DNA of 64,000 nucleotides from Rickettsiales bacterium (GCA_041396965.1 JAWKXN010000001.1:225890-289889); one strand, 5' to 3'; shown: positions 11,231 to 58,675, counted from the first letter of the stretch. Numbers and translations: made by a program. Notes: generated by a model not told the origin, from the letters alone.

Positions 11231-11256
11231 GTAACTAATAATGTTGTATATACGAA
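11231..11256 (+). promoter_or_regulatory. SigF/ECF16-type promoter GTAACT-N16-CGAA upstream of the RiPP precursor
   Basis: gtaact aataatgttgtatata cgaa, ending 65 nt before the ATG at 11322; matches the Caulobacter sigmaF consensus GTAACC-N16-CGAA with one mismatch. Confidence 0.7.
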
Positions 11257-11321
11257 TTCGTAGTTATAACATTTTTATTACAGATGTTATTTTATCAACG
11301 ATCTTAATTTAGGAGATAATT

Positions 11322-11582
11322 ATGAAAAGCAACAAGAAACTTGCTATATCCGCGCTTGCCGGTCTTATGGCTATGGGTGCTATGGCTGTAAGTCCAGCGG
11401 TGGCTAATGATGGCGGTAAAGCATCTTGTAAAAATAAAAGTGGGTGTAAAGGTAAAGCCGCTGTAGAAAAAGCTAACTGCAAAACAGCGGATGGCAAAGA
11501 AAAGAATTCCTGCAAAGGTCAGGATACCGATGATAAGAACAAATGTAAGGGACATGACGCGTCTCATAAGGATGGCAAGTAA
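11322..11582 (+). CDS. secreted Cys-Lys-repeat RiPP precursor (bufferin/oxazolin-like metallophore precursor)
   Basis: AGGAG RBS; Sec signal ending AVA; mature part has five Cys, all in CK dipeptides (KASCK, SGCK, KANCK, KNSCK, KNKCK); directly upstream of the MNIO gene. Confidence 0.8.
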   Translation: MKSNKKLAISALAGLMAMGAMAVSPAVANDGGKASCKNKSGCKGKAAVEKANCKTADGKEKNSCKGQDTDDKNKCKGHDASHKDGK

Positions 11583-11614
11583 TAGCCAGTCAATCATTTG
11601 ATTATGATATATAG

Positions 11615-11641
11615 TGGCGGGGGCGGTTTTTGTCTCCGCCA
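11615..11641 (+). terminator. 10-bp stem-loop between precursor and maturase
   Basis: TGGCGGGGGC-ggttttt-GTCTCCGCCA (two G-U pairs), followed by a T-rich tract. Confidence 0.6.
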
Positions 11642-11677
11642 TTTGTTTATACTCATTTTGTATGATTTTTATTCATA

Positions 11678-13384
11678 ATGAATATAGAAATTATAGTAAT
11701 GAAAACAGATATAGAAAGATTGCCTAATCTCGGTTTTGGGCTTGGTCTTAGAGCCAAGCACTATCCATATATTCTTGAGCACAAGCCAAAAATTGACTGG
11801 TTTGAGATTATTTCCGAGAATTTTATGGATACTGACGGCAGACCAAAACGGAATTTATCACGTATCAAAGAGCATTATCCTATTGTGATGCATGGCGTGG
11901 CGATGTCCATAGGTACGGTTGATCCGCTTAATTCAGAATATTTGCGAAAATTAAAAGCTTTAATGGAGTGGGTAAAACCAGCTTGGATATCCGATCATTT
12001 ATGTTGGACGGGAGTGGCTCACAAAAACACACATGACCTTTTGCCGGTACCCTACACTGAAGAGGCGTTAAAGCACATAGTTCAGCGTATCAAAGAAGTT
12101 CAGGATTATTTGGAATGTAAGATCGCTCTTGAAAATCCCTCAACCTATCTTGAGTTCAAAACATCCCATATTCCTGAAGCGGAATTCATTGCCCGTATGG
12201 CGGAGGAATCCGACTGTAATCTTTTGCTAGATGTAAATAACGTCTATGTGACTTGCTATAATCATAGGCTTGATCCAAAAAAATATTTGGATAGCGTTCC
12301 TATAGATAAGGTTATTCAAATACATCTTTCAGGTCACACCAATAAGAATACACATATTATAGACACGCATGATGATCATGTAATAGATGAGGTGTGGAAT
12401 CTATATAAATACGTGGTATCCAAAGCCGGACGTGTGCCTAATACGATGGTAGAGTGGGATGATAATATACCGGAGTTTCCGGTATTAAACGCTGAGTTGG
12501 AAAAGGCGAGGGGGGCAGCCGAGAATTTCGCTGATTATACGCTTCCAGATTTAGCGCGAGAGAATATCCCACAGCTTGCGAATCGTAAAACATCTCTTAT
12601 TGAGGAACAGAAACACATGCAGCGCGCGGTCATGGAAGGTGGTAGTTTTGATAGCGATCCGACAAGCTGGATCCGTAGTAAGGAATCATTCGCGCCACAC
12701 GAGCAATTATCAGTGTATATTAACGCTTATCGTTATCGTCTGAATGACGTGGTCGTAGAGGACTATCCAGTATTAAAATATTATCTTGGTGAGAAACTAT
12801 TTGAGGATACGGTGTGGGATTTTGTAAATACAGCACGACCTGATAATTTTAATATCGCGCGCTACGCGGCGAAGTTTCCAGAGTTTGTGGGTAAAAATAT
12901 TTCAGATGATATATTCGCTTATGAGTTATGTCAGTTGGAGACTGCCATAACGCAACTTGCTGATTGTGCTGAGACCGAAGTTTTAGAACAGAAACATCTT
13001 ACGGGTATGACACCGGAAAAATTAATGGAATCAGTTTTATATCCAAGAAAAGCTTTGCGACTTTTCGCTTTTGCTCATCAGGTAAATGCCTATTATCAGG
13101 CGGTAATGGATGATGAAGAGCCTGAGTCTTTCATTTTAGGAAATAGCCATGTCGCCGTTTTTCGCCATGAGGATTCTATGTGGCGTATGGATTTGGAAGA
13201 GCAAGAATATAACCTGTTAAAAAAATTGTTTAGCGGCGCAAAAGTCGGAGAGGCGTTAGATAACGTGGATGAATCCGCTGGCGATAAACTTGCGGAATGG
13301 TTTTCACGGTGGATAAATAATGGGTTGCTCGCAAGTCATGAATCTATGAATGATCAAGAAAAACATATACATGAAACAGCGTAA
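11678..13384 (+). CDS. fused multinuclear non-heme iron oxidase (DUF692/MNIO, BufB-like) + DUF2063 partner domain (BufC/HvfC-like)
   Basis: N-terminal half: [56 protein letters not shown]-terminal half: [12 protein letters not shown]...[11 protein letters not shown]. The ATG at 11699 is the likely start. Confidence 0.9.
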
Positions 13385-13426
13385 TGTGCTTAATTAGAGG
13401 CGGTATATACTAATAAGACGGACGAT

Positions 13427-14335
13427 TTGTATATGGGACATGGTCACGATCATGGAGAAAAAGACATGGCTGATGGGCGGCTTATTGCCGCTGTTGGCAT
13501 AAATCTTCTGCTCACGATAGCGCAGGTGATTGGCGGTATAATTTCTGGCAGCCTCTCACTTGTCGCCGACGCTCTTCATAATTTTAGTGACGCGGCTTCT
13601 TTGGTAATAGCGCTTTTCGCGCGTAAAATAGGACGCAAGCCACCTGATGAGCTTAGAACATTCGGGTATAAAAGAGCGGAAATTATAGCTGCTCTTATCA
13701 ATCTGGTGACTTTAGTTATTGTTGGTGTTTATCTTATATATGAAGCTCTGTGGCGTTTTTTTAAGCCAGAGATGGTAGAGGGATGGTTGGTTATAATAGT
13801 CGCTTCCATCGCTTTGATTATAGATGTGGTAACCGCCATTCTTACTTATAATATGTCAAAGAATAGCGTAAATATGAAAGCGGCGTTTTTGCATAATCTT
13901 TCGGACGCTTTATCATCGATATGTGTTATAATAGCCGGAAGTTTAATTATACTTTACGACTGGTACTGGGTAGATAGCTTCTTAACCTTGCTGATCGCTG
14001 GATATGTGTTGTATCAAGGTTTTAGCATGTTGCCATCTACCATTCATTTGCTTATGGAAGGTACTCCAGCTCATCTATCAATAAGTAAGGTAATATCAGC
14101 TATGGAAGAAATAGAGGGGGTTGATAGCGTACATCACGTACATGTTTGGCAGTTGGATGAACATCATAACGCGCTGGAAGCTCACATTGTAAGTGGCGTT
14201 ACTCAGATAAGCGAGATAGAGAAAATAAAAACAAGTCTTAAATCCATGCTTAAAGATAATTTTTCAGTTGGGCACTCAACATTAGAGTTTGAGCATGCTA
14301 ATAACACTGATTGTCAGTATAGTAACTTACGGTAA
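13427..14335 (+). CDS. cation diffusion facilitator (CzcD-like Co/Zn/Cd exporter)
   Basis: His-rich N-terminus GHGHDH, SLSLVADALHNFSD, TFGYKRAE, AFLHNLSD and HHVHVWQL. The ATG at 13433 is the likely start. Confidence 0.93.
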   Translation: MYMGHGHDHGEKDMADGRLIAAVGINLLLTIAQVIGGIISGSLSLVADALHNFSDAASLVIALFARKIGRKPPDELRTFGYKRAEIIAALINLVTLVIVGVYLIYEALWRFFKPEMVEGWLVIIVASIALIIDVVTAILTYNMSKNSVNMKAAFLHNLSDALSSICVIIAGSLIILYDWYWVDSFLTLLIAGYVLYQGFSMLPSTIHLLMEGTPAHLSISKVISAMEEIEGVDSVHHVHVWQLDEHHNALEAHIVSGVTQISEIEKIKTSLKSMLKDNFSVGHSTLEFEHANNTDCQYSNLR

Positions 14336-14361
14336 AGTTAACGCGAATAACTATAACATGG

Positions 14362-15582
14362 TTGTTTATGGAAAAAACTAAAGAGAAGACAAAAGCTGGG
14401 CATAGAGAGTTTGTCATGCTTATGGCGGTACTTATGTCGGTAGTGGCGATTTCTATAGACGCTATGCTGCCAGCGCTTGGCTTTATCAGAGACGATCTAG
14501 GTGTATCCCATCCTAATCATGGGCAATATATAGTTGGGATTATTTTTGCTGGAATGGCAATCGGACAGCTTATTAATGGAGTACTTTCTGACGCTTTTGG
14601 ACGGAAAAAAATTCTTTATGTAAGCCTCACTATGTATTTTATCGGAAGTATAATCTGTGTTTTCGCGAATAGCCTTAGTATAATGCTCGTCGGGCGCTTC
14701 ATACAAGGTATAGGTGTTTCTGGGCCTTATATATCGGTCATGTCCATAATCCGTGATCGTTATAGTGGGCGTGAGATGGCACGTATTATGTCGCTGGTTC
14801 TTACCATATTTATCATGATACCTGTGATCGCTCCCGCTGTTGGACAGTTGATATTATTTTTTGCCTCATGGCGGTATATTTTTGTCATGTATGTAATTTA
14901 CTCTATATCAGTTGGGCTGTGGGTATATTTTAGGCTAGAGGAAACTCTAATACCAGAAAATCGTGTGCCGTGTCGTATTGCTAACATTACTCATGGAGTG
15001 AAGACCGTATTGTCAAACCGCGTAACACTATGTTATACGCTCGCTCTTGGTTGTATATTTGGCGCGCTTAACGGTGAGCTTAATTCAGTTCAGCAGATTT
15101 TTCAGGTGCAGTACAAGGTGGGCGATATGTTTGCTGTGTATTTTGGACTACAGGCTTTAGCCTTTGGCGCGGCTTCCTTTGTGAATTACCGGTTAGTTGA
15201 TCGTTTTGGTATGCGTTACCTATGTATTTTCGCCACCAGCTTTATTGTTTTTATATCTTTATCTTTTCTAATATTAATAGCTATAACAGATGCTACGTTC
15301 ATTATGTACTTTTTATATGGCATGTTTTTGTTGTTTAGCATTGGTATTTTGTTCGGCAATCTCAACGCTATCGCTATGGAACCAATGGGTCATATAGCTG
15401 GTATGGCATCCGCTATTATTGGGTGTATATCAACAATTATCGGCATATTATTTGGAACAGTGATAGGTCAGATGTACGACGGAAGTCTTACTCCTATTAT
15501 CGCTGGGTTTTTTGTTATGGGAAATATTGCTTTAATTATTATGCTGTATGAGAATAGAAAAGAGAAAATTCTTATAAGGTAG
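14362..15582 (+). CDS. Bcr/CflA family MFS efflux transporter
   Basis: AISIDAMLPAL, GVLSDAFGRK, RDRYSGREMARIMS and GNLNAIAMEPMGHIAG. Confidence 0.92.
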   Translation: MFMEKTKEKTKAGHREFVMLMAVLMSVVAISIDAMLPALGFIRDDLGVSHPNHGQYIVGIIFAGMAIGQLINGVLSDAFGRKKILYVSLTMYFIGSIICVFANSLSIMLVGRFIQGIGVSGPYISVMSIIRDRYSGREMARIMSLVLTIFIMIPVIAPAVGQLILFFASWRYIFVMYVIYSISVGLWVYFRLEETLIPENRVPCRIANITHGVKTVLSNRVTLCYTLALGCIFGALNGELNSVQQIFQVQYKVGDMFAVYFGLQALAFGAASFVNYRLVDRFGMRYLCIFATSFIVFISLSFLILIAITDATFIMYFLYGMFLLFSIGILFGNLNAIAMEPMGHIAGMASAIIGCISTIIGILFGTVIGQMYDGSLTPIIAGFFVMGNIALIIMLYENRKEKILIR

Positions 15583-15592
15583 AAAGTATTAT

Positions 15593-16300
15593 ATGAATAA
15601 AAGCTTTATAACTAATTTTATAGCGCTCCTAATTACAGTCGGTGGTTATTTTTCTCCAGTGTATTCTGAGATAATCATGATGACTGGCCTGTTCGCTCTG
15701 TCTGGCGGTATCACAAACTGGATCGCTATTTATATGCTATTTGAAAAAGTACCGTTTCTTTATGGCTCAGGAGTCATACCAAAGCGTTTCGATGAATTTA
15801 AGGCTGGTATTAAACAGCTTATAATACAGGAGTTTTTCGCTCGTGAGCATATTGAGCGTTTTTTCCAACAGGTAAGTGGTAACTCAGCGGAGATAATATC
15901 TGATAAGATAGATTTTGAACGTGTGTTTTCTTCTATCGTGGAGGCGATTGAGGAGTCTCCCCTTGGTGGCATGCTTGGTATGCTTGGTGGAAAATCCGCT
16001 TTAGAACCTCTTAAAGAACCAGTCATAAAAAAACTAAAAGAAATAGTCACTGAACTGGCTGCTGGTGGTAATAAAAAAGATAGTGGTGACCAAGCCGGAA
16101 ATGATTTTACCTCATCGCTTATCTCTCAAGTTGAGAAGATTATTGATAATCGTCTAAGTGAGCTAACACCGCAAAAAGTAAAAGAGATAATTCAAAACAT
16201 GATCCGCAAACATCTTGGCTGGTTGGTAGTATGGGGAGGCGTGTTTGGAGGACTTATCGGTTTCGTGGTAAGTATCAGCGAGATGGGTGTTTTTCAATAA
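15593..16300 (+). CDS. DUF445 family membrane-anchored protein
   Basis: GLFALSGGITNWIAIYMLFEKVP and HLGWLVVWGGVFGGLIG termini. Confidence 0.85.
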   Translation: MNKSFITNFIALLITVGGYFSPVYSEIIMMTGLFALSGGITNWIAIYMLFEKVPFLYGSGVIPKRFDEFKAGIKQLIIQEFFAREHIERFFQQVSGNSAEIISDKIDFERVFSSIVEAIEESPLGGMLGMLGGKSALEPLKEPVIKKLKEIVTELAAGGNKKDSGDQAGNDFTSSLISQVEKIIDNRLSELTPQKVKEIIQNMIRKHLGWLVVWGGVFGGLIGFVVSISEMGVFQ

Positions 16301-16464
16301 TATACTACTGTGTTTCATGTCTAAATATACTGGTGAGGGCTAGTAGGCAAATTCAGAACCTCGGTGGATGATAAATTTCTGATTTATAGTGTAAAGAAAA
16401 AATTTCTACGGCCAAAATTACCTAACTAAAGAAGTGTTAGTAGGTTCGGACAACGCTAGATAGA

Positions 16465-16596
16465 ATGCCTTTGAACCTTACCGCCCGCATATTGACCGAT
16501 TTGATTTGACTGAGGAGCAGAAGATCGAATTGGTGAAGCTATACACCATATTGCACATTTGGTTTTGACAAGAAGTTTGGCATGTTACAAAATTAG
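16465..16596 (+). pseudogene. frameshifted paralog of the 18083 leader ORF
   Basis: FEPYRPHIDRFDLTEEQKIELV versus LEPYRPHIDNFDLTEEQKLELL at 18083. Confidence 0.75.
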
Positions 16597-16614
16597 GATA
16601 AGTAGGACAACTTC

Positions 16615-17795
16615 CTAGAAATCCATATTTGTTGAGCGGTCGAATTGGACCACATAAATAATCAAGAAAATCTTCCATATCTTTAGTGGATTGCATAGCC
16701 TTTTCATAAGTTCCATCTGAGGCCATGGGCAGTATCAAAGGCAAATCGCTTTCTTTGAATATACAGTTTTGCAGGCTCTCTACAATTGCCCCATGAAATG
16801 GAGATGAAGTCCTGAATTGATTTAATTGCATTTGATTCATCAAATGCAACTTCACCACTTAGAGTAAAAATACTTCTCTTTTTGATGCTCCAATAAAACT
16901 GGTACGGCTCCAGGAATGGAAGCTAAAAGCCTCGCCTTGCTTCCCAAATGAACCATGTGCCATAAAATTTCTAAGCTGGCGTCTAATAGAAATCAGAATA
17001 TCGAAATGTTTTTTTGTAACTTTGTCATTTACATCAAATGCTGTTTTGAATTTCTCTCCCCAATCTTTACCCGCCAATGCAGCAACTTCAGAGCCAGTCG
17101 ACAGCTTTCCCTCAAGAATAGCGATATGTATGAAAATATGCTCAGTCCAACTGAAGAATGCATCAATAGCAGCTTGGGCCAACCACTTGGATTTTTTTCG
17201 AAGTTCCCATGCAGGATAAGTGTAGGATTTAGCATTTTTAGATAGCTCTGTGATTATACATTCATCACGCCTATCAATGGCTTCTTGATGCATTTCTTCA
17301 TATGCATTAACGAAATATTCGTAACGGCTAAATAGTTCACGGCTATGGTCTACAACATTTAAGTTTGAATCTTGTATAGCCTGTTCGGCTTTCCACTTAA
17401 AAAAACGGTTTTGCAGCTTTTACGGATTTATGGGGATTAATTTTACAATTTCTTTTGCTTGAACCTCTTGGTTTTTTGCATCATGCGCAAAAACACCTAA
17501 CCCAAACTTCCGATGCTCTATCAAAAAGCAGTACCTCGTAATCTATTGAATAGACCATGCAATTTTCTGAATTTTCCAATATTTTTAAAGCCTAGCAACT
17601 CAACTAACAAAAAAATATACAAGATAGTATGGAGGCAAGGAGCGGCCTGCGTCTGTCCTTTGAGCATTAAACAAGAATTGTTTATCTGCCTTGGTATTAT
17701 CATCTGCGGGTTTAATACTACCAATGGCCTTTAATGCCTTTTTCTCTTATTGGCACTAATTCCAAGGGGAGGTTGTTTTTATCATCTTTAGCCAT
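16615..17795 (-). pseudogene. frameshifted ~390-aa protein with a HEPN-like RxxxxH motif
   Basis: Stitched reading MAKDDKNNLPLELVP...LLVELLGFKNIGKF/EKIAWSIPIDY.G/AFLIEHRKFGLGVF...MHQEAIDRR...RQLRNFMAHG (16955-16972)...QFDRSTNMDF*; several 1-bp deletions. Confidence 0.7.
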
Positions 17796-17796
17796 A

Positions 17797-17949
17797 GGCG
17801 AGTCGAACCATCAAATTCTTGATTATATTAGAGAATAGCAGGTAGAGATAAAATGTAAGCTAAAAACTTAAGAAAACAAGCGAGCTTTCAAACCGCATCA
17901 AGTTCTTATCTATCAATTGTCTTGGAGAAATGATAGAAAGTTATGGTGG
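17797..17949 (+). pseudogene. highly degenerate remnant of a recombinase C-terminus
   Basis: ggcgagtcgaac ~ ggagagttcgaac; RIAGRDKM ~ RMAFTDKL; FQTA ~ FRTA when compared with the 19005 ORF tail. Confidence 0.5.
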
Positions 17950-18082
17950 AGCATCGGCGATCTTATGCAAACCAAATGCTTTTGTGATGTGATTGGTGGA
18001 TGATTTTTGAACAGCACACCAGCCAGGAAATAACTTGCTAGTTCTCGGAAAGGAAGGTGTTAGCTCAAAAAGGAGCTGACTT

Positions 18083-18235
18083 ATGAAAATCACCGACCTC
18101 GAACCTTATCGTCCGCACATTGACAACTTCGACCTAACCGAAGAGCAGAAGCTGGAGTTATTGAATACACTGGCTGAAATAGCGGACAAGATTATAGAGA
18201 GGAGATTTAAATCTTTTGAGCAAAAAGAAAAATAG
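18083..18235 (+). CDS. 50-aa leader protein of the integrative element (below the ORF-track cutoff)
   Basis: AGGAG RBS; MKITDLEPYRPHIDNFDLTEEQKLELLNTLAEIADKIIERRFKSFEQKEK*; paralog remnant at 16465. Confidence 0.7.
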   Translation: MKITDLEPYRPHIDNFDLTEEQKLELLNTLAEIADKIIERRFKSFEQKEK

Positions 18236-18808
18236 CTAGATATTTTTACGTAAGTCATAAAATTTGGATGGTTCTCCACTATCTAACTCTGCATCAATAA
18301 AATATCTTGTTTCTTTTTCGGTTTCAAAAACTTGATTTCTGCATTCGTCAAAATAATCACGCTCTGTTGAAAGTTCTTCTTCTTGATCGACCTTCCAACT
18401 ATGATCAAAGTAGCTGGCAATCATATACAGGCAGAATAGTGCTGTAATAGTTCCAGCAACTCCATAACTATCATAGACCGGATGGTAGATTAGAATAGCC
18501 AATACAGCTGCTGCCAATCGAGCTTTTGGTCCTTTGTATTTCGCCTTATTCAGCTCTTTTCGCGCATCATGCAAATTTAACTTCGCATTATCGATAAAGG
18601 CCTTTGAGAGAGCTATTCGTAAGCTTCAATTAACTTTTTACGCTCTTCAACATTGGGGTAAGAAGTAAGTCTCTCTGATTTGTTCAATTTCGCTCGCATA
18701 AGGGTACTCAGTTTTCAGGCCATCAATACCAGCGGCAGCTTCTGTCTTTTGTATTTCAGAGGCGATTTCTTCGAGGTGTTTTTCAAGTTGTGATCTACGC
18801 ATTTTCAT
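18236..18808 (-). pseudogene. cargo membrane protein split by one 1-bp deletion (~18615)
   Basis: The upstream frame MKMRRSQLEKHLEE...EAYE joins (I)ALSKAFIDNAKLNLHDARKELNK... if one A is restored; two TM segments in the 3' part. Confidence 0.65.
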
Positions 18809-19004
18809 CTACCTTAAACCGAGTTATAAAGAAATCATGTTTTTATCATGAATATTAATTGGAAAATGCTGTTCAGCAGACATCCAACTTTCTCCACGAA
18901 ACTCACTCATATTACTTCCTAAATATAGGATAACCTTTTGGATATCAACGGATTATAATGCTGCTATCTGTATATGTACCATTATAACAGGGAATATACT
19001 GCGT

Positions 19005-19532
<528 letters not shown>

Positions 19533-19670
19533 TACAAACCACACTAATTATGTGCGTAGCGTATAAACAATGAAGGAAATGAGTTTTTAAGGCTCATTAT
19601 GTTAAAAGTCAATGTTTTTAAGGATTTATAGTGATTTAAGAGAATTATCATCTGAATGACTATGACGTTA

Positions 19671-20004
19671 TTATCCAAAAGACAAGGTTTTCCGCAGCGA
19701 AGCAAGCATAAAACTGAACAAAGTACGACCAGCAGTTCGCGCGAGCCTTCAGCCTTTCCATATACCTCATGTGCCGCCAGTAGGCGGCACGAGCCCTCAG
19801 CAATGCCTAATGAGATTTTCAGTAGAAAATCTCGGAAGGCAAATATCATAAACTACCACTAGAGGGAGAGGGGATATTCATGAAAAATGAGGAACAAGAA
19901 GCACAGCCAGTAGGCAGCATGAACCTTCAGCTATGTCGCATCCGCCTTTGCGCTTGCGCGCTACGGCGAGACAAGTGTGAAAGACAGTAGGCTTTCACGG
20001 GGAC
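19671..20004. repeat. mosaic of palindromic repeats (partial family B, three family A hairpin units, one inserted REP-like unit)
   Basis: Partial copy of 30908-31025; gtgccgcc-agta-ggcggcac hairpin with related units at ~19723 and ~19901; 19896-20004 matches 5730-5803. Confidence 0.75.
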
Positions 20005-20019
20005 GGGGGAAAATCTGTA

Positions 20020-22834: not shown

Positions 22835-22868
22835 TTACAATATTATCTATAATGAATTAGTTTGTTTG

Positions 22869-46292: not shown

Positions 46293-49252
<2,960 letters not shown>

Positions 49253-49255
49253 ATT

Positions 49256-49699: not shown

Positions 49700-49738
49700 T
49701 ATTATCTTCCAATTATTTTAGTACAGTTCCAAATTGTT

Positions 49739-50272
49739 TTATCGCCATATTGACGAGCCTAATCTGTTTATATTGTTGGCGGTCTCATTAAGCTTCTCCC
49801 ATAATCTGGATATTTCCTTTGATGTTATATCAATATTGGGTAGATAGCCTATTTCCAATTTACCGGTTGTTTCTTCTATTACTTTGATTGAGTCGCCCAC
49901 CAATCTTTTTATTTTATTAGCATTATTATTAGTTATATATTTAAAATTTTCTGACACTACAATTGAGAGTGAACTAGCTGTACCAGATAAGCAACCTATG
50001 GTTTTTCTTAACTTATTAGTGCTATCACAGTGTGTTTTGCCATATTTTTGACTAAACAGATTATCAAGCACCAATATTTTGTTTTTTAGCTTTTCTATTT
50101 CTTTGGTTAAAGGGTCTTGATTACTAACAATCATTGTCATATACGCTCTTAAATTCGTTACATGACTACTGCTAGTATATGGTTTAGCATGAATTTGAGT
50201 GTTGACCCGATTTCTAATCCTATCGGTAAAATTAACAGCTACAACATTGCTGGTAGGTTTTTCTTCACTCAT
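49739..50272 (-). CDS. hypothetical alpha-helical protein
   Basis: 177-aa ORF; N-terminal NVVAV motif. Confidence 0.65.
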   Translation of the reverse strand: MSEEKPTSNVVAVNFTDRIRNRVNTQIHAKPYTSSSHVTNLRAYMTMIVSNQDPLTKEIEKLKNKILVLDNLFSQKYGKTHCDSTNKLRKTIGCLSGTASSLSIVVSENFKYITNNNANKIKRLVGDSIKVIEETTGKLEIGYLPNIDITSKEISRLWEKLNETANNINRLGSSIWR

Positions 50273-50361
50273 GATAAGTAATTATGTCATTATTAATATA
50301 ATTAGATTAAAATATTATAATAATAATTAATTTTTATCAATAATAAGTTGGCGGTTGGTTT

Positions 50362-52098
50362 ATGTCTAATAAATTGTTATTAGTCAGAAAGTTATTAGAA
50401 AAATATGGTATAAACGCCTATTTGCAACCCGTGCATGATGAGTGGATGAGCGAATATCCACCGTTATGTAATAGGCGAGTGGAGTGGCTCACTGGTTTTA
50501 CGGGGTCAGCTGGTCTTGCGGTGGTCACAGACGATAAAGCAGTAATATTCGTTGATGGGCGTTACACTCTACAAGCGAAAGAGCAGGCGGGTGCGGATTA
50601 TGAAATACATAATATAGCTGATTACCCACCAGAAAAATGGCTTGCCGGTAATATCCCAGCTGGAAAAAAAATTGGTTATGATCCGAAATTATATACCAGA
50701 ACCATGCTGAAAAGATTTGAGAAATTATCATTAATTCCTGTTGAGAATCTGATTGATGCGCTCTGGGAAAATCGTCCGCCTCCACCAGCGACACCACTAT
50801 TTATCCATGAGACTAAATATAGTGGTGAGTCATCCACTTCCAAACGTAGCCGTGTAGTTTCTGAAATAAAAAAAGCAAACGCTGATTTATTATTTTTAAG
50901 TGCGCCAGAAAATGTGAATTGGCTGTTTAACATCAGAGCACGTGATGCTGAAAATACTCCGCTATGCCTCGCGTCAGCGATTCTTGATAAGAATGGTAAA
51001 GCATATATCTATCTTGACGAGGATAGAGTCAGTAATAAGGTTAGTGACCATCTGGGAAATGATACCGAAATAATTTCTCCTGAAAATATTAAAGAAAATC
51101 TTTCCGTATTTACTGGTAAAAAGATTCTGTGTGATAGCGGTACCACGCCACTTTTTATAGAGAATTTATGTGTTGATAGTGGTCTTAAGGTAATAAATTC
51201 TACAGATCCTTGCGAGCTACTTAAGGCGATTAAAAATCCGGTAGAATTAGCAGGAATGCGCGCTGCTCACATCCGTGATGGGCTAGCGGTCACCAAGCTG
51301 TTATATTGGTTAAGCAGGCAAAGTAAGGTAAGTGAACTTGACGTAGTGGGTAAGATTTTAGAATTACGTACTCAAAATGAATTATTCGTTGAGCCAAGTT
51401 TTGATACTATAGCCGGAAGTGGCGAGCATGGAGCGATAGTACACTATCGTGCTACAAAAGAAAGTAATCGCAATTTAGGTGATGGCGAGCTTTTTCTGCT
51501 GGATTCTGGGGGGCAGTACTATGATGGCACAACCGACATAACCAGAACAGTGATCATAGGAAACCCAACAGATGAGCATAAGAGAAATTTTACTTTAGTG
51601 CTCAAAGGTCATATCGCGCTTGCCTGTGCTATTTTTCCTGAGGGTACAACCGGAACGCAACTTGATGTTCTGGCACGGCAATATCTATGGCAGGCAGGGC
51701 TTGATTACGATCATGGAACTGGACATGGTGTTGGTTGCTTCTTAGGTGTTCATGAGGGACCGCAGCGAGTATCTAAGCGGGCAGGGGATGTGCTCCTTAA
51801 ATCCGGTATGATATTATCAAACGAACCGGGTTATTATAAAACTGGTGAGTACGGTATACGTATTGAGAATTTAGTTGCGGTAGTAGAAAAAATCACCGGT
51901 GATAATAATAAAAAATATTTGGGATTTGAGACGATTACTTGCACACCGATGGATGTTGCGCTTATAAATATTTCCATGCTTACATCTGAGGAAAAAATTT
52001 GGATAAATAATTACCATAATTGGGTAAGGGAAGAATTATCACCATATCTTGACGCTGATGAGACAGTATGGCTTATAAAAGCCTGTGCTTCTCTGTAA
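50362..52098 (+). CDS. Xaa-Pro aminopeptidase (M24 family)
   Basis: WLTGFTGSAG, DSGGQYYDGTTD, HGTGHGVG, VHEGP, SNEPGYY and GIRIEN. Confidence 0.95.
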   Translation: MSNKLLLVRKLLEKYGINAYLQPVHDEWMSEYPPLCNRRVEWLTGFTGSAGLAVVTDDKAVIFVDGRYTLQAKEQAGADYEIHNIADYPPEKWLAGNIPAGKKIGYDPKLYTRTMLKRFEKLSLIPVENLIDALWENRPPPPATPLFIHETKYSGESSTSKRSRVVSEIKKANADLLFLSAPENVNWLFNIRARDAENTPLCLASAILDKNGKAYIYLDEDRVSNKVSDHLGNDTEIISPENIKENLSVFTGKKILCDSGTTPLFIENLCVDSGLKVINSTDPCELLKAIKNPVELAGMRAAHIRDGLAVTKLLYWLSRQSKVSELDVVGKILELRTQNELFVEPSFDTIAGSGEHGAIVHYRATKESNRNLGDGELFLLDSGGQYYDGTTDITRTVIIGNPTDEHKRNFTLVLKGHIALACAIFPEGTTGTQLDVLARQYLWQAGLDYDHGTGHGVGCFLGVHEGPQRVSKRAGDVLLKSGMILSNEPGYYKTGEYGIRIENLVAVVEKITGDNNKKYLGFETITCTPMDVALINISMLTSEEKIWINNYHNWVREELSPYLDADETVWLIKACASL

Positions 52099-52244
52099 AT
52101 TATATCAGATTTTATGGTGGTTTTACTTAATTTTTCTGGTTGAGTAAAGTGACAAGGATGCGACCGCGTCCCGCCATCAATTTAAGTGGCACTACCGCTT
52201 CGCTATTTGAGCGCGGTGCGGCGTAAGTCATGTGGCTATTCTTA

Positions 52245-52901
52245 TCAATTAGTCGCTAAAGAACTTCTTTTAAGAAAAATCTTTCCTAAGAACATACCAG
52301 CCACAGTTACAATAAATACAGGAATGAAGTGCCAAATCATAAGCACCATAGGATCATCGTGTATATCTATGAGGCGCAGCATTATATAGCTAAAGCTAGC
52401 GATTGAAAGCGCTGCCATGCTCCCCGCCCAGCAACAAAGAGTTGGCGCGGCTTTGCGTATTGCCGCAAATATAAATACTCCCATTATGGAGCTGAAAATT
52501 AGTATGCTTGCCATGCATTCATATTCTTTCTTTTTTAGGCAGTCCATCATACTCATAGAATTTTCATGCGTAACTCCTTTAATTAAAAAAAATGCTATTA
52601 TCAGCGTAGGAATTAATGGGATAAACCTTACCCATCCTTTTTGTCCACTATCAGGTAGTGCAAGAAAACTAGCGGCTATCATCGCACTAGTCGCGGCGAT
52701 AAACATTACTGATACATCGAAGATATAGTCACTTTCCCTTATTTTTATGGCAATATCAGAACGCAGTCCAAAAAATACAGTAATAAATGCAAAATATGTA
52801 ATAGTAACAAATATCCATTTGCTTGCCATGATAATGGGATCTGGCAATGGTGGTTCCAGCTTCTCTACAGATAATTTATCTATTAAACTATCCGTATCCA
52901 T
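52245..52901 (-). CDS. nrsF: NrsF (DUF1109) membrane anti-sigma factor
   Basis: Six-TM Cys-containing protein, translationally coupled to the ECF sigma gene. Confidence 0.75.
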   Translation of the reverse strand: MDTDSLIDKLSVEKLEPPLPDPIIMASKWIFVTITYFAFITVFFGLRSDIAIKIRESDYIFDVSVMFIAATSAMIAASFLALPDSGQKGWVRFIPLIPTLIIAFFLIKGVTHENSMSMMDCLKKKEYECMASILIFSSIMGVFIFAAIRKAAPTLCCWAGSMAALSIASFSYIMLRLIDIHDDPMVLMIWHFIPVFIVTVAGMFLGKIFLKRSSLATN

Positions 52902-53458
52902 TATAATTCTCCTTTCTTATTTTTTTCTATCAATATATTATACGCTCTATGTGCCGATACCTTAACCGCTGAAACGCTCATATCCATTTCCGCCGCTACT
53001 TCCTTCGCCGAATATCCTTCAATTTTCATCATGCTTACTATCTTTTGCTGCTTTTCTGGTAATATTGATAAAGCGTCATTTAGTAGTTCGCTTGATTCTT
53101 GGGATTTGGTTACATTATCAGCGAGACTATGTTCAATCTCATTAAAATCTATTTTAATGAGAGCAGATTTCCTATAGTAGGCTCTTAAATAATCTTTTAC
53201 CTTATAGTCGGCTATAGCGAACATCCATGCTTTGAAACTTCTGTCAGTATTATAGGTATGGCTTGATTTATGTATAGCCAGCAGAATTTCTTGTAATATT
53301 TCTTCGTTATCTACCCCGTTTCCAATCTTATTATATAAGAAGCCCTTAATAATTGGGGTAATGCTTCTAAGGAGCTTGTTGTAAGCTTTACTATCACCAG
53401 ATTGAGCCTTTTTCATCAGCTCTTCCAATGATTGAGTATTTGATTGTTTTTCAGTCAT
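52901..53458 (-). CDS. ECF sigma factor (SigF/ECF16-like)
   Basis: MKKAQSGDSKAYNKLL, QEILLAIH...Y...RSFKAWMFAIADYK and VKVSAHRAY; paired with nrsF. Confidence 0.88.
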   Translation of the reverse strand: MTEKQSNTQSLEELMKKAQSGDSKAYNKLLRSITPIIKGFLYNKIGNGVDNEEILQEILLAIHKSSHTYNTDRSFKAWMFAIADYKVKDYLRAYYRKSALIKIDFNEIEHSLADNVTKSQESSELLNDALSILPEKQQKIVSMMKIEGYSAKEVAAEMDMSVSAVKVSAHRAYNILIEKNKKGEL

Positions 53459-53840
53459 TTATATATTTTTTGTATATATTTACACACAGAATTGTTATAT
53501 AATAACCGTACTAACACAGCCATTTTATTTGCTTTTTATATAAACTTTGTTAGTGTACCGACCGCTTGTAGATTGTCTATTGTTTTTATTAGGAGGGTTT
53601 TGTGCTATTATGGATACTAATAGGAGCTTTGTTGCTAATCCTAGTTTATATAAAAGGGATAAGGTAAGCTTTGTCTAGTTAATGGTGCAAGTTACAGCTC
53701 AGCAGTTTCCTTAGAATAGCTCGGTTGCCATATTGCGATGACCGTTAGCTCTACATTTTAGTGTCGCTTTCCCCTACTTGATGCAGTTGCCTTACGACCA
53801 GAATTAACTTATTAATAAAGTTTGCTGTATTTAATGACAT

Positions 53841-54437
53841 ATGTATAATGCTGTCATGGGACGCAAACTTACATTCTGTAAAAATAAAGCTTTGGAAGAG
53901 ACAATGTTCCTTTTTTGGGAGAGGGGATATGAGTCTACCTCTGTGCGCGATATAGCTAGCAGACTTAACATCCCTATAGCCTCAGTATATCATAGTTTCG
54001 GTGATAAAGATTCTATTTTTGCCTCAACCATTGATGTTTATTTCAACAAATATATGGTTCCACTCTTTTCTGATTTAAGTAATTATGAAGATGCTAAGCA
54101 GGCAATCATAGATCTTTTTGAGATCATTATAAAAAACTCTAGTAATAGCACACCATCTGGCTGTTACTTGGTGCAAACAGCATCCGATATAATGTCACGT
54201 AATCCTGATATAAAATCAAAGTTAGATGATTATTTTAATTATATAAAATCATCTCTTTACGATTTAATCAAAAAAGCGAAGAACGATAAGCAAATCATAA
54301 CACAAGAAACTAACAGTAATCTGTCTAACTATCTATTTATTCTTATGTTATCAATTAAGAGCTGTTCACGCGTAGGAGCCGACAATAGACAGATCCGTCA
54401 ATATATAAAAACAGCCCTGCAGCCCGTATTTTCTTGA
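53841..54437 (+). CDS. TetR/AcrR family transcriptional regulator
   Basis: LFWERGYESTSVRDI...SVYHSFGDKDSIF...GCYLV. Confidence 0.9.
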   Translation: MYNAVMGRKLTFCKNKALEETMFLFWERGYESTSVRDIASRLNIPIASVYHSFGDKDSIFASTIDVYFNKYMVPLFSDLSNYEDAKQAIIDLFEIIIKNSSNSTPSGCYLVQTASDIMSRNPDIKSKLDDYFNYIKSSLYDLIKKAKNDKQIITQETNSNLSNYLFILMLSIKSCSRVGADNRQIRQYIKTALQPVFS

Positions 54438-54878
54438 CTATAATTTAGCCAGATTACCGAATTTTCTCTTGATAAAATAATCCGCTGATATTCTACCAGA
54501 GCCAAAACACAATATCGTACCAAGCAAGAACGACCAGTAATAATGCTGTTCATGTTGCAAATAGGTAATTTGGATAACTGCTGTTATCACTAAAAGAGGG
54601 AGGGTGGCAAAGCGTGAGCCAAGACCAACTGTAAGTAATATCGGGCATAATAGCTCAAATGTAGTGCCAGAAAGAGCCGCGAACTCAGAGTTTACATAAG
54701 GAACCGGATGCTCATCAGTAAATAGCATGACGGTTGTTTCCCAGTCATTAAACTTTAATATTCCAGATTTCCAGAAAATATTCGCTATCCATAGTCTCAT
54801 CCCAAGTAATAGAAAATCTTGTAGGAAAGAAGTTGTCTTAAAAAAGATAGAAAATAGCCTAATAATTTGTTTTTTCAT
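54438..54878 (-). CDS. DoxX family membrane protein (BufD-like)
   Basis: IFWKSGILKF, LFTDEHPVP, FELLCPILL.VGLGSRFA and GSGRISADY. Confidence 0.88.
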   Translation of the reverse strand: MKKQIIRLFSIFFKTTSFLQDFLLLGMRLWIANIFWKSGILKFNDWETTVMLFTDEHPVPYVNSEFAALSGTTFELLCPILLTVGLGSRFATLPLLVITAVIQITYLQHEQHYYWSFLLGTILCFGSGRISADYFIKRKFGNLAKL

Positions 54879-54913
54879 AGTTTATTCCTTTAGCGTAGTC
54901 ATCAGTATAGCTA

Positions 54914-54939
54914 TTCGCTATATAATCAAAAAAGGTTAC
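54914..54939 (-). promoter_or_regulatory. perfect SigF-type promoter GTAACC-N16-CGAA for doxX
   Basis: The plus strand reads TTCG ctatataatcaaaaaa GGTTAC; it ends 35 nt before the doxX ATG. Confidence 0.8.
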
Positions 54940-55016
54940 CTAAAGCATAATTTCATATTATACGTAAAACCAAATCATTAGCTTATTTAGTTATACGCAA
55001 TACATAGAAATTTAAT

Positions 55017-55041
55017 GTAACCTTTTATCAGGGTTTACGAA
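55017..55041 (+). promoter_or_regulatory. SigF-type promoter GTAACC-N15-CGAA for ovoA
   Basis: gtaacc ttttatcagggttta cgaa, about 47-68 nt before the ovoA start candidates. Confidence 0.65.
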
Positions 55042-55088
55042 TATAAAATAATAGTATAAATGTTCTATTTATATATTTTTCTTAAATA

Positions 55089-57413
55089 TTGCGTGAAAGG
55101 GAGTTGTTAATGACAGCCTTAAAAAAGGAAATTATTAAAGATAACAGTTCTATTGCTTATAATTTGGGGTGGACAGGAGCTCCTATCGCTCATGGTGTAT
55201 GCGCTGGTGTAAGAAGTGATGGAACTATGATATCACTCCCTTTGGTAAATCTGAACGCTAGTCGTGGGCGGATTCTTGATTATTTCAATAATAGTTGGGC
55301 GTTAAACGATGTATTGTTCAGCTCTCTTGCGTGTGAGGAAGCGTTTTATAAATGCCCCTATCATAAGCTTCGTCACCCGATGATTTTTTACTATGGTCAT
55401 ACCGCTTCGGTATATGTCAATAAATTGCGTGTCGCCGGTCTTATAGAAAAACCGATTAATCCTGAGTTTGAGAAGATTTTTGAGGTTGGTGTTGATGAGA
55501 TGCGTTGGGACGACATGCACGAAAATGATCAAGATATTTGGCCTTCTGTCGCTGAAGTAAAAGAGTATCGTAAAGTGGTTTACAATACAATACGTGACAT
55601 AATAGAAAATCATCCACTGCTTAACGAGGAAAATTTACCCGTAACCCAAAAAAGTCCAATGTGGGCGCTGGTTATGGGTTTTGAGCATGAGCGTATCCAT
55701 CTGGAAACTTCCAGTGTTCTTATCCGTGAATTACCTATAGAATATGTACGTAAACCTAAAGAATGGCCGGATTTTTACTCAATTAAGTCAGATAGTCATT
55801 ATCCGCAAAATGAGATGATAGAGCTTAGCAAAAGCAGAGTGTTCTTAGGTAAACCCGAAGACTTTCCTTCATTTGGTTGGGATAACGAATATGGCGCGGA
55901 AACTCTTGAAGTTCGTCCATTCGCTGCCAGTAAGTTTCTAATAAGTAATGGTGAGTTTTTAGAGTTTGTAAAAGATGGTGGATACAGGCAAGAAAAATAC
56001 TGGTCACGTGATGGTTGGCAATGGCGGCGTTTCCGTAATATTAAATGGCCAACTTTCTGGATTCAGGATGGTCCGGCTGGCTCACATCTTTACAAATTGC
56101 GGACTATTTTTGAAGTGATTGATATGCAATATGATTGGCCGGTATGCGTTAATTTCCACGAGGCGAAAGCTTATTGCGCGTGGAAGAGCGAAAAAGAAGG
56201 TACGGATACTCCTTACCGGCTACTTACGGAAGCCGAGCATAACGCTATTCGTAGCAATAATATTCTGGATAATATTCCGAGCATGGAAAGTGACATGGTA
56301 ATGAGTGGCGAGCTGCTTGCGAAAGGCTATAACCTAAATCTGGAAAGTGGAGCGGAAAGCCCAGTTAATGCTTTTGCCGCTAATGACAAAGGTTTTTACG
56401 ATACGTTCGGTAATGTCTGGCAGTGGTGTGAGGATCATTTTCATCCACTTGCTGGAAGTAAGCCTCATCCTTATTACGATGATTTCAGCGCGCCTTGCTA
56501 TGATGGCGAGCATCAGATGATGTTGGGCGGATCATTTATCAGCACTGGTGATGAGGCGAGTATCTGGGCACGCTTTCACTTCCGCCCGCATTTCTATCAG
56601 CATAGTGGATTTCGTATCGCCCGTAATATAGATGATAATCCAGCAAGTGAGGCGAAACTATTATTCGCTGGTGGGACTTCTTCTTACGAATCACGGGAAA
56701 TGCTAGATAAATATCTGCTTATGCACTGGGGTAGCAACAATGACATATGGGGTAACGTGCCGCAAAGCACTATGGCAAGGCCGGAATCATTTAATCTCCC
56801 ACTTAAATGCGCTGAGCTGGTAAATAGGTATGCCACAGGTTTTGATAGGGTGTTAGATATTGGTTGCGCGGTTGGTCGTTCCAGTTTTGAATTGGCTCGT
56901 AACTTCTCTGAAGTTACCGGAATTGATTACAGTAAGGAGTTTATAGAAGCCGCGAGCAGGCTTAAGAAAAATGGTACTATATCCTGCCGCCGTAAGGAAT
57001 CAGGTGATGAATTTACCGACATGCTAATCTATGTTGATAACTCCATAGATAGAAGTAAAGTTCGCTTTGAACAGGGTGATGCTTGTAACCTACCTTTATA
57101 TATAAGAAATTATGACGCTGTACTACTTGCCAATACATTGTGTCGGTTGCCAGAACCGGTATCCTTTCTTGAGAGGACGCAGGGGCAGAGCGCGTTGGTA
57201 AAGAAAGGCGGTGTGTTAGTTATGACTACACCATTTAGCTGGCTTGAGGAATATACGCCAAAATCTAACTGGCTTGCTGGCATTGCTGCGGTGCAAGATA
57301 TTCTAAGTGAGTTTGAACTTATACATCAGGAAGAGCTTCCGTTTATGATTCGTGAGCATAGCAGAAAATTTGAGTATGTTATAACTCTTGCCAGTGTATG
57401 GAAAAGGAAATGA
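55089..57413 (+). CDS. ovoA: ovothiol synthase OvoA (5-histidylcysteine sulfoxide synthase with fused N-methyltransferase)
   Basis: HPMIFYYGHT, GVDEM.WDD and EHERIHLETSSVL iron-binding motif; FGE-like domain with FHFRPHFYQHSGFR; C-terminal LDIGCAVGRSSFEL and QGDACNL methyltransferase. The ATG at 55110 is an alternative start. Confidence 0.92.
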   Translation: MRERELLMTALKKEIIKDNSSIAYNLGWTGAPIAHGVCAGVRSDGTMISLPLVNLNASRGRILDYFNNSWALNDVLFSSLACEEAFYKCPYHKLRHPMIFYYGHTASVYVNKLRVAGLIEKPINPEFEKIFEVGVDEMRWDDMHENDQDIWPSVAEVKEYRKVVYNTIRDIIENHPLLNEENLPVTQKSPMWALVMGFEHERIHLETSSVLIRELPIEYVRKPKEWPDFYSIKSDSHYPQNEMIELSKSRVFLGKPEDFPSFGWDNEYGAETLEVRPFAASKFLISNGEFLEFVKDGGYRQEKYWSRDGWQWRRFRNIKWPTFWIQDGPAGSHLYKLRTIFEVIDMQYDWPVCVNFHEAKAYCAWKSEKEGTDTPYRLLTEAEHNAIRSNNILDNIPSMESDMVMSGELLAKGYNLNLESGAESPVNAFAANDKGFYDTFGNVWQWCEDHFHPLAGSKPHPYYDDFSAPCYDGEHQMMLGGSFISTGDEASIWARFHFRPHFYQHSGFRIARNIDDNPASEAKLLFAGGTSSYESREMLDKYLLMHWGSNNDIWGNVPQSTMARPESFNLPLKCAELVNRYATGFDRVLDIGCAVGRSSFELARNFSEVTGIDYSKEFIEAASRLKKNGTISCRRKESGDEFTDMLIYVDNSIDRSKVRFEQGDACNLPLYIRNYDAVLLANTLCRLPEPVSFLERTQGQSALVKKGGVLVMTTPFSWLEEYTPKSNWLAGIAAVQDILSEFELIHQEELPFMIREHSRKFEYVITLASVWKRK

Positions 57414-57442
57414 CATTCCATATAACGTATTGGAGATAAAAA

Positions 57443-58675
57443 ATGAGTCATAAAAGTACTAATCTAAAATTCACTAATGATAGAGGAATTACTCTGGAGG
57501 CGGTTTTAGAAGAGCCGGTTTCCGGCATAAAGGCTTATGCTTTATACGCTCACTGTTTTACCTGTTCTAAAGAGATTAATGCCGCTGTTAGAGTGTCGCG
57601 GGCTTTGGCTGATAAGAATATCGCGACTTTACGTTTTGATTTTTCCGGTATAGGTGATAGTGGAGGGAAATTTTCAGAAACCACATTCTCCACTAACGTA
57701 GAAGATATAAAGTACGCTGCTGAGTTTTTGCGTAATAACTATAATTCGCCGCGATTATTGGTTGGTCATAGTTTAGGAGGAGCCGCTGTTCTTGCCGCCG
57801 CCGGTGATATTGCTGAGGTAGTGGCGGTGGCTACCATTGGCGCACCAAGTAAACCATCACACCTTGAGCATTTATTCAAGCAAGAGCTTGAGCGAATTAT
57901 GGCAGACGGTAAATCATGCGTATCTCTTGGAGGAAAGAAGCTAGAGATAAGTAGAGATTTTGTAGAGGATATACAAAGTTATGATTTAGCAAAAAAAGTA
58001 GCGAAATTAAAAAAAGCATTGTTGATTTTACATTCTCCAATGGATGAGATAGTGGGTATAAAAAATGCTCAGGAGTTATATGAAGTAGCTTACCATCCCA
58101 AAAGTTTTATTTCACTAGATGGAGCGGATCATCTATTGAGCAAAAAGAAAGATTCTGATTACGCGGCTTTCATTATATCCACATGGGCTGAGCGTTATGT
58201 AAAAACAGAAAATAATTCCGCTAAAGTAACAAATATTCCAGAGTCTCTTAATGGCGAGGTTATAATTGATGAGGCGGGAGGGGGACGACTCGCGCGCGTA
58301 ATTAACGCTAATGGTCATATATTACACGCTGATGAACCGCTAGAACAGGGTGGCGCTAATAGCGGAGCTACGCCATACGAATTATTACTAGCGGCTCTGG
58401 GTAGTTGTGTGTCAATGACGGTAAGAATGTACGCTGATCACAAAAAATGGCCTCTTGAGAAAATAAGTGTCCGTTTGAAACACCAGAAGATTCACGCCAA
58501 AGATTGTGATGATTGCGAATCAAAAGATGGCAAGATAGATATTATAGAAAAGAAGCTAAGTTTTTATGGTGACTTATCAGAAGAGCAAAAACGACGTTTG
58601 CTAGAAATATCAGAAAAATGCCCAGTAAATAAAACACTTAAATCAGATATTAAGATAATAACTAGCGAAGTATAA
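57443..58675 (+). CDS. bifunctional alpha/beta-hydrolase + OsmC-family protein
   Basis: AHCFTC, GHSLGG and DGADHLL; C-terminal DEP...GG...PYELLLAALGSC and CPV. Confidence 0.92.
   Translation: MSHKSTNLKFTNDRGITLEAVLEEPVSGIKAYALYAHCFTCSKEINAAVRVSRALADKNIATLRFDFSGIGDSGGKFSETTFSTNVEDIKYAAEFLRNNYNSPRLLVGHSLGGAAVLAAAGDIAEVVAVATIGAPSKPSHLEHLFKQELERIMADGKSCVSLGGKKLEISRDFVEDIQSYDLAKKVAKLKKALLILHSPMDEIVGIKNAQELYEVAYHPKSFISLDGADHLLSKKKDSDYAAFIISTWAERYVKTENNSAKVTNIPESLNGEVIIDEAGGGRLARVINANGHILHADEPLEQGGANSGATPYELLLAALGSCVSMTVRMYADHKKWPLEKISVRLKHQKIHAKDCDDCESKDGKIDIIEKKLSFYGDLSEEQKRRLLEISEKCPVNKTLKSDIKIITSEV

Follow-up and report, generated by a model that had tools for sequence, protein, structure and literature searches.

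A dispersed SigF/NrsF-type regulon predicted to join bufferin genes with ovoA in a Rickettsiales bacterium

We analyzed a 64,000-nt window of the genome of a Rickettsiales bacterium (GCA_041396965.1 JAWKXN010000001.1:225890-289889; genome G000 below), in which copies of the box GTAACY-N15/16-CGAA precede a bufferin-like precursor gene, doxX, and ovoA, and which also encodes an extracytoplasmic function (ECF) sigma factor paired with an NrsF-type anti-sigma factor. Judging from these sequences, ovoA is likely transcribed from a SigF-type promoter, and we hold it equally likely that the window contains most of the dispersed regulon of a SigF/NrsF-type ECF sigma factor; across the family of G000, ovoA very probably belongs to such a regulon. 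The initial annotation had proposed that one sigma factor of this type co-regulates the MNIO bufferin locus, doxX, and ovoA, and this central claim is supported by the enrichment of the box, its rank under a weight matrix, and its conservation upstream of ovoA in seven of nine genomes.

Promoter boxes in the window and across the genome

Exact searching returned four matches in the window, compared with 0.28 expected from dinucleotide-preserving shuffles, none of 100 of which reached four; the motif is therefore commoner here than in shuffled sequence. The boxes are:

11231-11256, + strand: SigF-type promoter box TGTAACT-N16-CGAAT, before the bufferin-like precursor gene
14322-14347, + strand: fourth, weak box, overlapping the end of a cation diffusion facilitator (CDF) gene
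54914-54939, - strand: SigF-type promoter box before doxX
55017-55041, + strand: SigF-type promoter box before ovoA, TGTAACCTTTT-N-ACGAAT, with a spacer one base shorter

The three boxes already recorded in the initial annotation (at 11231, 54914-54939(-), and 55017) came back at the same coordinates, and the box at 14322-14347(+), which it did not list, raises its count of copies from three to four. The CGAA element lies 65, 35, and 68 nt before the start codons of the precursor (ATG 11322), doxX (ATG 54878), and ovoA (ATG 55110), which agrees with the promoter distance claimed for them, and just 20 nt before that of an MFS transporter gene (ATG 14368); the fourth box is an uncertain member of the regulon. 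The ATG of ovoA has a GGGAG ribosome-binding site, and an upstream TTG at 55089 looks like an over-extension of the reading frame.

The G000 assembly comprises a 2.05-Mb contig (C1) and a 121-kb contig (C2), together 2.18 Mb at 39% GC, and contains 18 matches to the strict pattern GTAACY-N15/16-CGAA. About 10 of these lie inside genes, where chance predicts about 9.5, and eight fall in the right orientation within non-coding promoter zones, which make up only 4.1% of strand positions (binomial p = 2.5e-7), a start-proximal enrichment that holds genome-wide. This count uses a hand-corrected annotation; a crude automatic gene call based on open reading frames (ORFs) gives 5/18 (p = 6e-4), a figure that is too low because it missed small precursor genes. 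Six of the eight promoter-zone matches precede bufferin, doxX, msrBA, or ovoA genes.

A two-block weight matrix trained on 65 sites from relatives, with the loci of G000 itself excluded, ranks the ovoA box first in the genome at 24.6 bits. When every ovoA-proximal site was also dropped, leaving 58 training sites, the ovoA box ranked second of 8.7 million positions at 23.9 bits (background mean -35, standard deviation 9.8), and the bufA2, doxX, msrB, and bufA1 boxes all fell within the top 10. The doxX box scores 20.7-21.1 bits (genome rank 4), the precursor box 17.7 bits (rank 10), and the weak box at 14322-14347 14.8 bits (rank 17). The pattern also coincides with the Caulobacter sigmaF site GTAACC-N16-CGAA, mapped by 5' rapid amplification of cDNA ends (5'-RACE) before two DUF2282 operons (Kohler et al. 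2012, PMC3511200). Both the rank under a matrix trained without ovoA sites and the box shared with Caulobacter were counted in favor of a SigF-type promoter upstream of ovoA.

Outside the window, a second divergent pair of boxes at C1:616722(-) and C1:616779(+), both among the eight promoter-zone matches, borders the following locus:

C1:614733-617956: second bufferin locus (L077), with DUF2282 precursor, BufB, and DUF2063/RRE protein

The minus-strand box precedes the DUF2282 precursor, BufB-type MNIO, and DUF2063/RRE genes (C1:614.7-616.7 kb), roughly 335 kb from the sigF-doxX-ovoA region of the window. The precursor is a clear DUF2282 protein and the MNIO at C1:615.5 kb matches NCBIfam MNIO_BufB at 344 bits (cut-off 310), while the 251-aa DUF2063 partner gives a weak HvfC-type RRE match below its NCBIfam cut-off. 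The plus-strand box precedes a 57-aa Cys-rich membrane ORF (C-x5-C-x4-C-x2-C), msrB, msrA, and a eukaryotic-type carbonic anhydrase gene. G000 thus has two bufferin loci, both of which carry the box.

Conservation upstream of ovoA and origin of the arrangement

Relatives of G000 contain 72 distinct GTAAC-N16/17-CGAA sites in 435 kb of DNA around their ovoA, nrsF, and MNIO genes, and the same motif occurs 13 times, which is the background level, in 1.1 Mb around distant ovoA genes. The extended consensus in relatives is tGTAACyTTt-N-CGAAT; beyond the search pattern, the T before the G is present in 47 of 63 sites, the T three bases past GTAAC in 54/63, and the T after CGAA in 56/63.

Within the family, ovoA is found in nine of 44 genomes (seven of 19 genera), and it is absent from 24 genomes sampled in other families of the order. 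The box precedes ovoA in seven of these nine genomes (G000, G001, G013, G034, G036, G015, and G016), usually 30-70 nt from the start codon. The distance is about 150 nt in G001, where a perfect 40-nt inverted repeat or hairpin (TATACTCCATTCTGTATTTTTTAATACAGAATGGAGTATA) is inserted between box and gene (L072, 6430-6580). In G015, two neighboring genes take the place of ovoA, one for the sulfoxide synthase (474 aa) and the other for the methyltransferase (251 aa), and the split gene still lies behind the box (L075, 14510-16686(-)). The gene upstream of ovoA is doxX in G000, LpxR in G013, an outer-membrane efflux protein in G015, an unrelated gene in G016, and a shared membrane protein in G001, G034, and G036; both box elements are thus kept, while spacers differ, in at least four unrelated gene contexts. 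The presence of the box before ovoA in six of eight relatives has a probability of 3e-16 against a background of 0.0015 per promoter, and of 1e-8 when only independent contexts are counted (three of four).

The gene is also linked to the sigma factor system. NrsF is encoded in eight of the nine ovoA genomes versus 24 of 52 others (Fisher p = 0.019), and G014, the sole ovoA genome that lacks it, also lacks the box before ovoA. In four genomes ovoA lies 2-11 kb from nrsF. The order in G001, G034, and G036 is nrsF-sigF-doxX, a divergent pair of boxes, bufA (DUF2282)-bufB-bufC, four metal-related genes, a box, and ovoA. The four intervening genes (L072 of G001, 4576-6360; also in G034 and G036) encode a Cys-rich secreted protein, an outer-membrane-like protein, a periplasmic HMA protein, and a CC-motif membrane protein, the last of which we take by eye to be MerC/MerT-like; all four are absent from G000.

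The DoxX protein of G000 is 62-74% identical to those encoded divergently from DUF2282 bufA in G001, G034, and G036, and its sigma factor is 64-74% identical to the sigma factors of that arrangement, compared with about 40% to those beside fused-MNIO loci. On this comparison of sequences, the doxX gene beside sigF is the ancestral partner of the DUF2282 bufferin operon rather than of the fused-MNIO locus at 11 kb. The latter is a second bufferin system, which in many relatives has its own sigF-nrsF pair, absent in G000. In the likely history of the region, the DUF2282 operon would have left the sigF-doxX-ovoA neighborhood and now lies some 335 kb away beside msrBA; its departure, together with the loss of the four metal-related genes, would have brought the promoters of doxX and ovoA into their present back-to-back arrangement. 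The initial annotation had described a single operon split over ~44 kb that had recruited ovoA and osmC; its genes are indeed scattered and probably co-regulated, but doxX was assigned to the wrong partner, and the recruitment of ovoA is family-wide and predates G000, with only the hydrolase-OsmC gene being specific to this genome.

In more than 10 relatives, the order is sigF-nrsF, box, Cys-rich precursor, and fused MNIO-DUF2063 gene. A second conserved box lies inside the last ~70 nt of the fused gene in L043, L044, L046, L047, L049-L052, and L056, in most of these loci with the form GCGTAACGG[AT][AT]TGCT-N-CGAATA. It precedes a small downstream gene, DoxX-like wherever identifiable, and resembles an internal promoter that has been retained within a coding sequence. 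The fused gene of G000 has no embedded box and is followed by the CDF gene instead. Further boxed genes in relatives include msrA, DUF1223, DUF547, and an ArsC-like low-molecular-weight phosphatase, and msrA or msrB lies behind a box in G000, G015, and a Bdellovibrio metagenome-assembled genome (MAG).

Loci L044-L056 place sigF-nrsF directly upstream of Cys-rich, non-DUF2282 precursors with fused MNIO-DUF2063 genes. According to a 2025 survey, Buf1 clusters include genes for sigma factors and NrsF, whereas Buf2 clusters do not (PMC12452194); the family of G000 may be an exception to this rule or may contain a separate class of precursor.

Regulon genes, proposed mechanism, and competing readings

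Gene identities proposed for the sigma factor, NrsF, MNIO-DUF2063, DoxX, OvoA, and OsmC proteins were borne out by Pfam and NCBIfam. The genes concerned are:

11322-11582, + strand: predicted secreted Cys/Lys-rich precursor peptide of 86 aa with a putative signal peptide and five C-K motifs (from sequence)
11678-13384, + strand: single-chain MNIO (BufB)-DUF2063/RRE (BufC) maturase (Pfam PF05114, 4e-107, and PF09836)
13427-14335, + strand: CDF metal efflux protein (Pfam Cation_efflux and ZT_dimer)
14368-15582, + strand: MFS transporter (Pfam MFS_1)
15593-16300, + strand: DUF445 membrane protein, the final gene of the run (Pfam DUF445)
52245-52901, - strand: NrsF-type anti-sigma factor, DUF1109 (Pfam NrsF PF06532, 98 bits, cut-off 26.8)
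52901-53458, - strand: ECF sigma factor (Pfam Sigma70_r2, Sigma70_r4_2, and Sigma70_ECF)
53841-54437, + strand: TetR-family regulator between sigF and doxX (Pfam TetR_N)
54438-54878, - strand: DoxX membrane protein (Pfam DoxX)
55110-57413, + strand: OvoA, 5-histidylcysteine sulfoxide synthase with C-terminal methyltransferase (Pfam DinB_2, FGE-sulfatase, and methyltransferase)
57443-58675, + strand: alpha/beta-hydrolase-OsmC fusion (Pfam)
58695-59162, - strand: peroxiredoxin, convergent

The stop codon of the sigma factor gene overlaps the start of nrsF at 52901, and the Pfam matches of the two products agree with the sigF-nrsF-like pair first noted at 52-53 kb. The NrsF protein reaches 26.5 bits against the narrow NCBIfam NrsF equivalog, far under its cut-off of 300, and is therefore a distant member. 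Systems of the SigF/NrsF type are activated by Cu, Cd, or dichromate through cysteines of NrsF; a single Cys column was seen here, kept in 28 of 29 NrsF sequences including that of G000. The genome encodes four sigma-70-family proteins, just two of them of the ECF type. We infer that the SigF-like protein is the one that reads the box.

The precursor has no Pfam or NCBIfam match, including to any recognized bufferin class (DUF2282, Buf_6/12Cys, or EGKCG), and its N-terminus is signal-like; it is 35-46% identical to precursors encoded ahead of fused MNIO genes in relatives, and these orthologs are preceded by the same box. The fused maturase scores 365 bits against NCBIfam MNIO_BufB (cut-off 310), with DUF2063 (PF09836) occupying residues 311-404. 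The CDF gene follows after a gap of 42 nt and for this reason probably belongs to the same operon. The hydrolase-OsmC gene starts 29 nt after ovoA with no terminator detected between them by a terminator scan, and is probably co-transcribed with it. This adjacency is found in no relative, and the gene was rejected as a conserved partner of ovoA.

By analogy with Caulobacter, the six-helix membrane anti-sigma factor NrsF would hold the sigma factor until metal or oxidative stress frees it, and RNA polymerase carrying the sigma factor would then start at tGTAACyTTt-N-CGAAT promoters. Targets in the window would be the operon encoding the secreted Cys/Lys-rich precursor, the fused MNIO-DUF2063 maturase, and the CDF pump, with perhaps the MFS and DUF445 genes; doxX; and ovoA with the hydrolase-OsmC gene. 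Those outside would be the DUF2282 bufferin operon (bufABC) and msrB-msrA. Acting together, these genes are predicted to buffer copper in the periplasm, repair methionine sulfoxide, and make a 5-thiohistidine (ovothiol-type) thiol. It is a tentative extension of this model that the histidine-derived thiol (ovothiol/5-thiohistidine) forms a co-induced, integral arm of bufferin-based copper and oxidant defense in the family; in the cytoplasm, such a thiol could serve, for instance, as a reductant or ligand that tolerates Cu(I), alongside chelation in the periplasm. Under this tentative reading, no regulator of ovothiol synthesis would have been identified in any bacterium before SigF/NrsF.

Several observations weigh against the SigF/NrsF model. 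No convincing box precedes sigF, the best candidate being a site about 210 nt upstream with CAAA for CGAA, and autoregulation of sigF through the box was rejected on account of this single mismatch. The top-scoring site not belonging to ovoA (C1:584944-584968(-), 23.8-24.2 bits), which is among the two highest matrix scores genome-wide, is antisense inside a 369-aa gene, which shows that the matrix also picks sites without obvious function. Genome G031 encodes both NrsF and OvoA and has no box before ovoA. In a comparison with the best 80 ovoA loci from other lineages, one of which (L111, an Alphaproteobacteria MAG) is a member of the family, the box precedes ovoA in L111 and in none of the 79 loci outside the family, six of them alphaproteobacterial; the link is therefore lineage-restricted, and a general connection between ovoA and the box beyond the family was rejected. 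The TetR-family gene between sigF and doxX, whose homolog adjoins doxX in G034, could encode the main regulator. No OvoB-type lyase was found in any ovoA genome of the family, G000 included, with queries that are not verified OvoB proteins. Finally, four wastewater metatranscriptomes contain ovoA contigs between 55109 and 56870, and one of them also nrsF and sigF contigs, so that ovoA is transcribed in situ, but as these are assemblies at 2-5x depth they do not place the 5' end.

Based on some of these points, ovoA might be controlled mainly by the adjacent TetR-family repressor or a housekeeping promoter, the box being auxiliary or a vestige of the time when the gene lay behind a bufferin operon. 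This would fit the position of the tetR gene, the unboxed ovoA of G031, and the detection of ovoA RNA but not doxX RNA in untreated wastewater samples, where the assembled contigs include none from doxX or the intergenic region and none upstream of 55109; the ovoA contigs, with none upstream of 55109, were themselves counted in favor of the SigF-type promoter. We regard control of this kind as rather unlikely, since in at least four unrelated gene contexts, some of them in genomes without a tetR gene nearby, the -35 and -10 elements are kept while spacers and flanks diverge, a pattern that points to selection on the box. No better sigma-70 promoter was found in the region, where the scan gave fewer matches than in shuffles. 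A role for TetR as a second input is plausible. Far less probable is that the boxes are due to chance in AT-rich intergenic sequence, or that they are recognized by the second ECF sigma factor (C1:1462451-1462993), which has no recognizable partner gene nearby. The existence of this factor, the 39% GC content of the genome, and the chance-like number of strict matches inside genes favor that reading, but the shuffles speak against chance, which is excluded by the promoter-zone enrichment, the matrix ranks, and the conservation across genera, and in more than 10 relatives the box stands directly after sigF-nrsF and before bufA, with a sequence equal to that of the Caulobacter sigmaF site.

It is also possible that the box is genuine and that OvoA does not make ovothiol, instead stopping at 5-histidylcysteine sulfoxide or acting as a cysteine-consuming thiol oxygenase, in which case the regulon would couple copper defense to cysteine and sulfur chemistry rather than to an ovothiol pool. 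We consider this unlikely, though less so than either alternative above. A thiol-oxygenase side activity has been reported for a bacterial OvoA (PMC8943887). The OvoB queries were a putative OvoB adjoining ovoA in Methylophilus (L155) and the class-V enzyme of a Bdellovibrio locus (L129), neither of them biochemically verified, and neither gave a tblastn match in G000 at E <= 1e-3; a sensitive genome search recovered only general aminotransferases at 21-26% identity, in ovoA-positive and ovoA-negative genomes alike. The C-S cleavage would thus have to come from a housekeeping pyridoxal phosphate (PLP)-dependent lyase, and promiscuous enzymes of this type could provide that step. Both OvoA domains pass their NCBIfam equivalog-domain cut-offs (TIGR04344, 640 bits, cut-off 400; TIGR04345, 189 bits, cut-off 170), including the methyltransferase, which acts only after the lyase step. 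On balance we slightly favor ovothiol as the product, a conclusion drawn from OvoA alone because no OvoB was found; of the ovothiol pathway first proposed for this region, the full-length OvoA stands and the lyase is missing.

Known systems and additional sites

The closest known system is sigmaF-NrsF of Caulobacter crescentus/vibrioides (PMC3511200; Leprevost et al. 2024, PMC11626156), likewise alphaproteobacterial, which shares with G000 the ECF sigma factor with a DUF1109/NrsF partner, the promoter, and targets comprising two bufferin operons (DUF2282 or 6-Cys precursor, MNIO/DUF692, and DUF2063) and DoxX. The Caulobacter regulon does not include ovoA, whereas in G000 both ovoA with hydrolase-OsmC and msrB-msrA are boxed; Caulobacter msrA homologs were not sigmaF-dependent under dichromate (PMC3511200). 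G000 also differs in that its regulon is scattered, over 41 kb in the window and ~335 kb to the second bufferin locus, and in having a maturase made as a single MNIO-DUF2063 chain, with genes for CDF and MFS transporters behind it. The boxed msrA and msrB genes fit a link to msrAB regulation in Neisseria cited by Kohler et al. (PMC3511200). The Ecf/NGO1945-type system of Neisseria gonorrhoeae, which controls msrAB, resembles the locus at C1:616779 in that an ECF-type regulon joins DUF692/DUF2063 genes with methionine sulfoxide reductase, although Neisseria belongs to the Betaproteobacteria.

Cupriavidus and Legionella have gig (gold-induced genes) operons that are today classed among the bufferin gene clusters; these are metal-induced and of the bufferin type as in G000, but are contiguous (PMC12452194; PMC11626156). 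The texts of these two bufferin papers do not mention ovothiol or OvoA. Erwinia-type bacterial ovoA/ovoB systems encode a full-length OvoA with sulfoxide synthase and methyltransferase as in G000, together with the OvoB not found there (PMC8433421). Alphaproteobacteria make up ~1% of the OvoA set in that survey, the text of which contains none of the terms "sigma", "operon", or "neighbo...", so that we found no regulation of ovothiol described in it. In the literature that we could search, nothing joins ovothiol with ECF sigma factors or bufferins, combined ovothiol/OvoA searches gave unrelated reviews only, and the regulation and physiological role of bacterial ovothiol are essentially undescribed. 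For the Ecf/NGO1945-type system of Neisseria gonorrhoeae, we know of no reported link to ovoA.

The sequence data support the view that a known ECF regulon has been extended to ovoA specifically in this lineage. If this is correct, bacterial ovothiol would gain a regulator, the first for its synthesis, and a physiological context, and the production of ovothiol in response to metal or oxidative envelope stress would become a testable hypothesis. The known SigF/bufferin regulon would also be widened to one that works scattered rather than as one cluster, with consequences for genome-mining pipelines in which adjacency is the criterion for a bufferin cluster.

Outside the family, NrsF is encoded within 7 kb of ovoA only in the Bdellovibrio MAG (L129) and in Methylophilus sp. 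Leaf416, neither of which has a box before ovoA. In Methylophilus sp. Leaf416, an MNIO gene, sigF-nrsF, and ovoA-ovoB lie within 9 kb. In the Bdellovibrio MAG, a boxed operon that encodes MsrB, a DsbD/thioredoxin-type protein, and HutD runs divergently from sigF-nrsF. At 6899-10027, 3.5 kb from the sigma factor pair, this MAG encodes a 1042-aa fusion of an OvoA-like sulfoxide synthase with a PLP-dependent decarboxylase domain, and a class-V aminotransferase gene comes next.

Four further matches in G000 were not accepted as regulon members. The antisense site at C1:584944(-), which has no obvious downstream gene, lies in what is presumably tgt. The site at C1:861700(-) has CGAAA in place of CGAAT before a pair of small genes, which we take to be a toxin-antitoxin pair, and C1:728440(+) is in a degraded region. 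The site at C1:391942-391967(+) (18.9-19.7 bits, rank 5) lies 91 nt before a TrbC/VirB2 pilin ORF and ~110 nt before its likely ATG, and may be due to chance or reflect a link between the stress sigma factor and a type IV secretion/conjugation operon.

A search for the ATP/ADP translocase PF03219 as a marker of intracellular lifestyle gave no match in G000 or in control genomes and is hence uninformative. The best Sigma70_r2 match in the genome (88 bits) is at C2:71499-71711(-), in an 801-aa open frame of the size of a primary sigma factor, and on this basis the 121-kb C2 contig may be a chromid or an unjoined piece of the chromosome rather than a plasmid.

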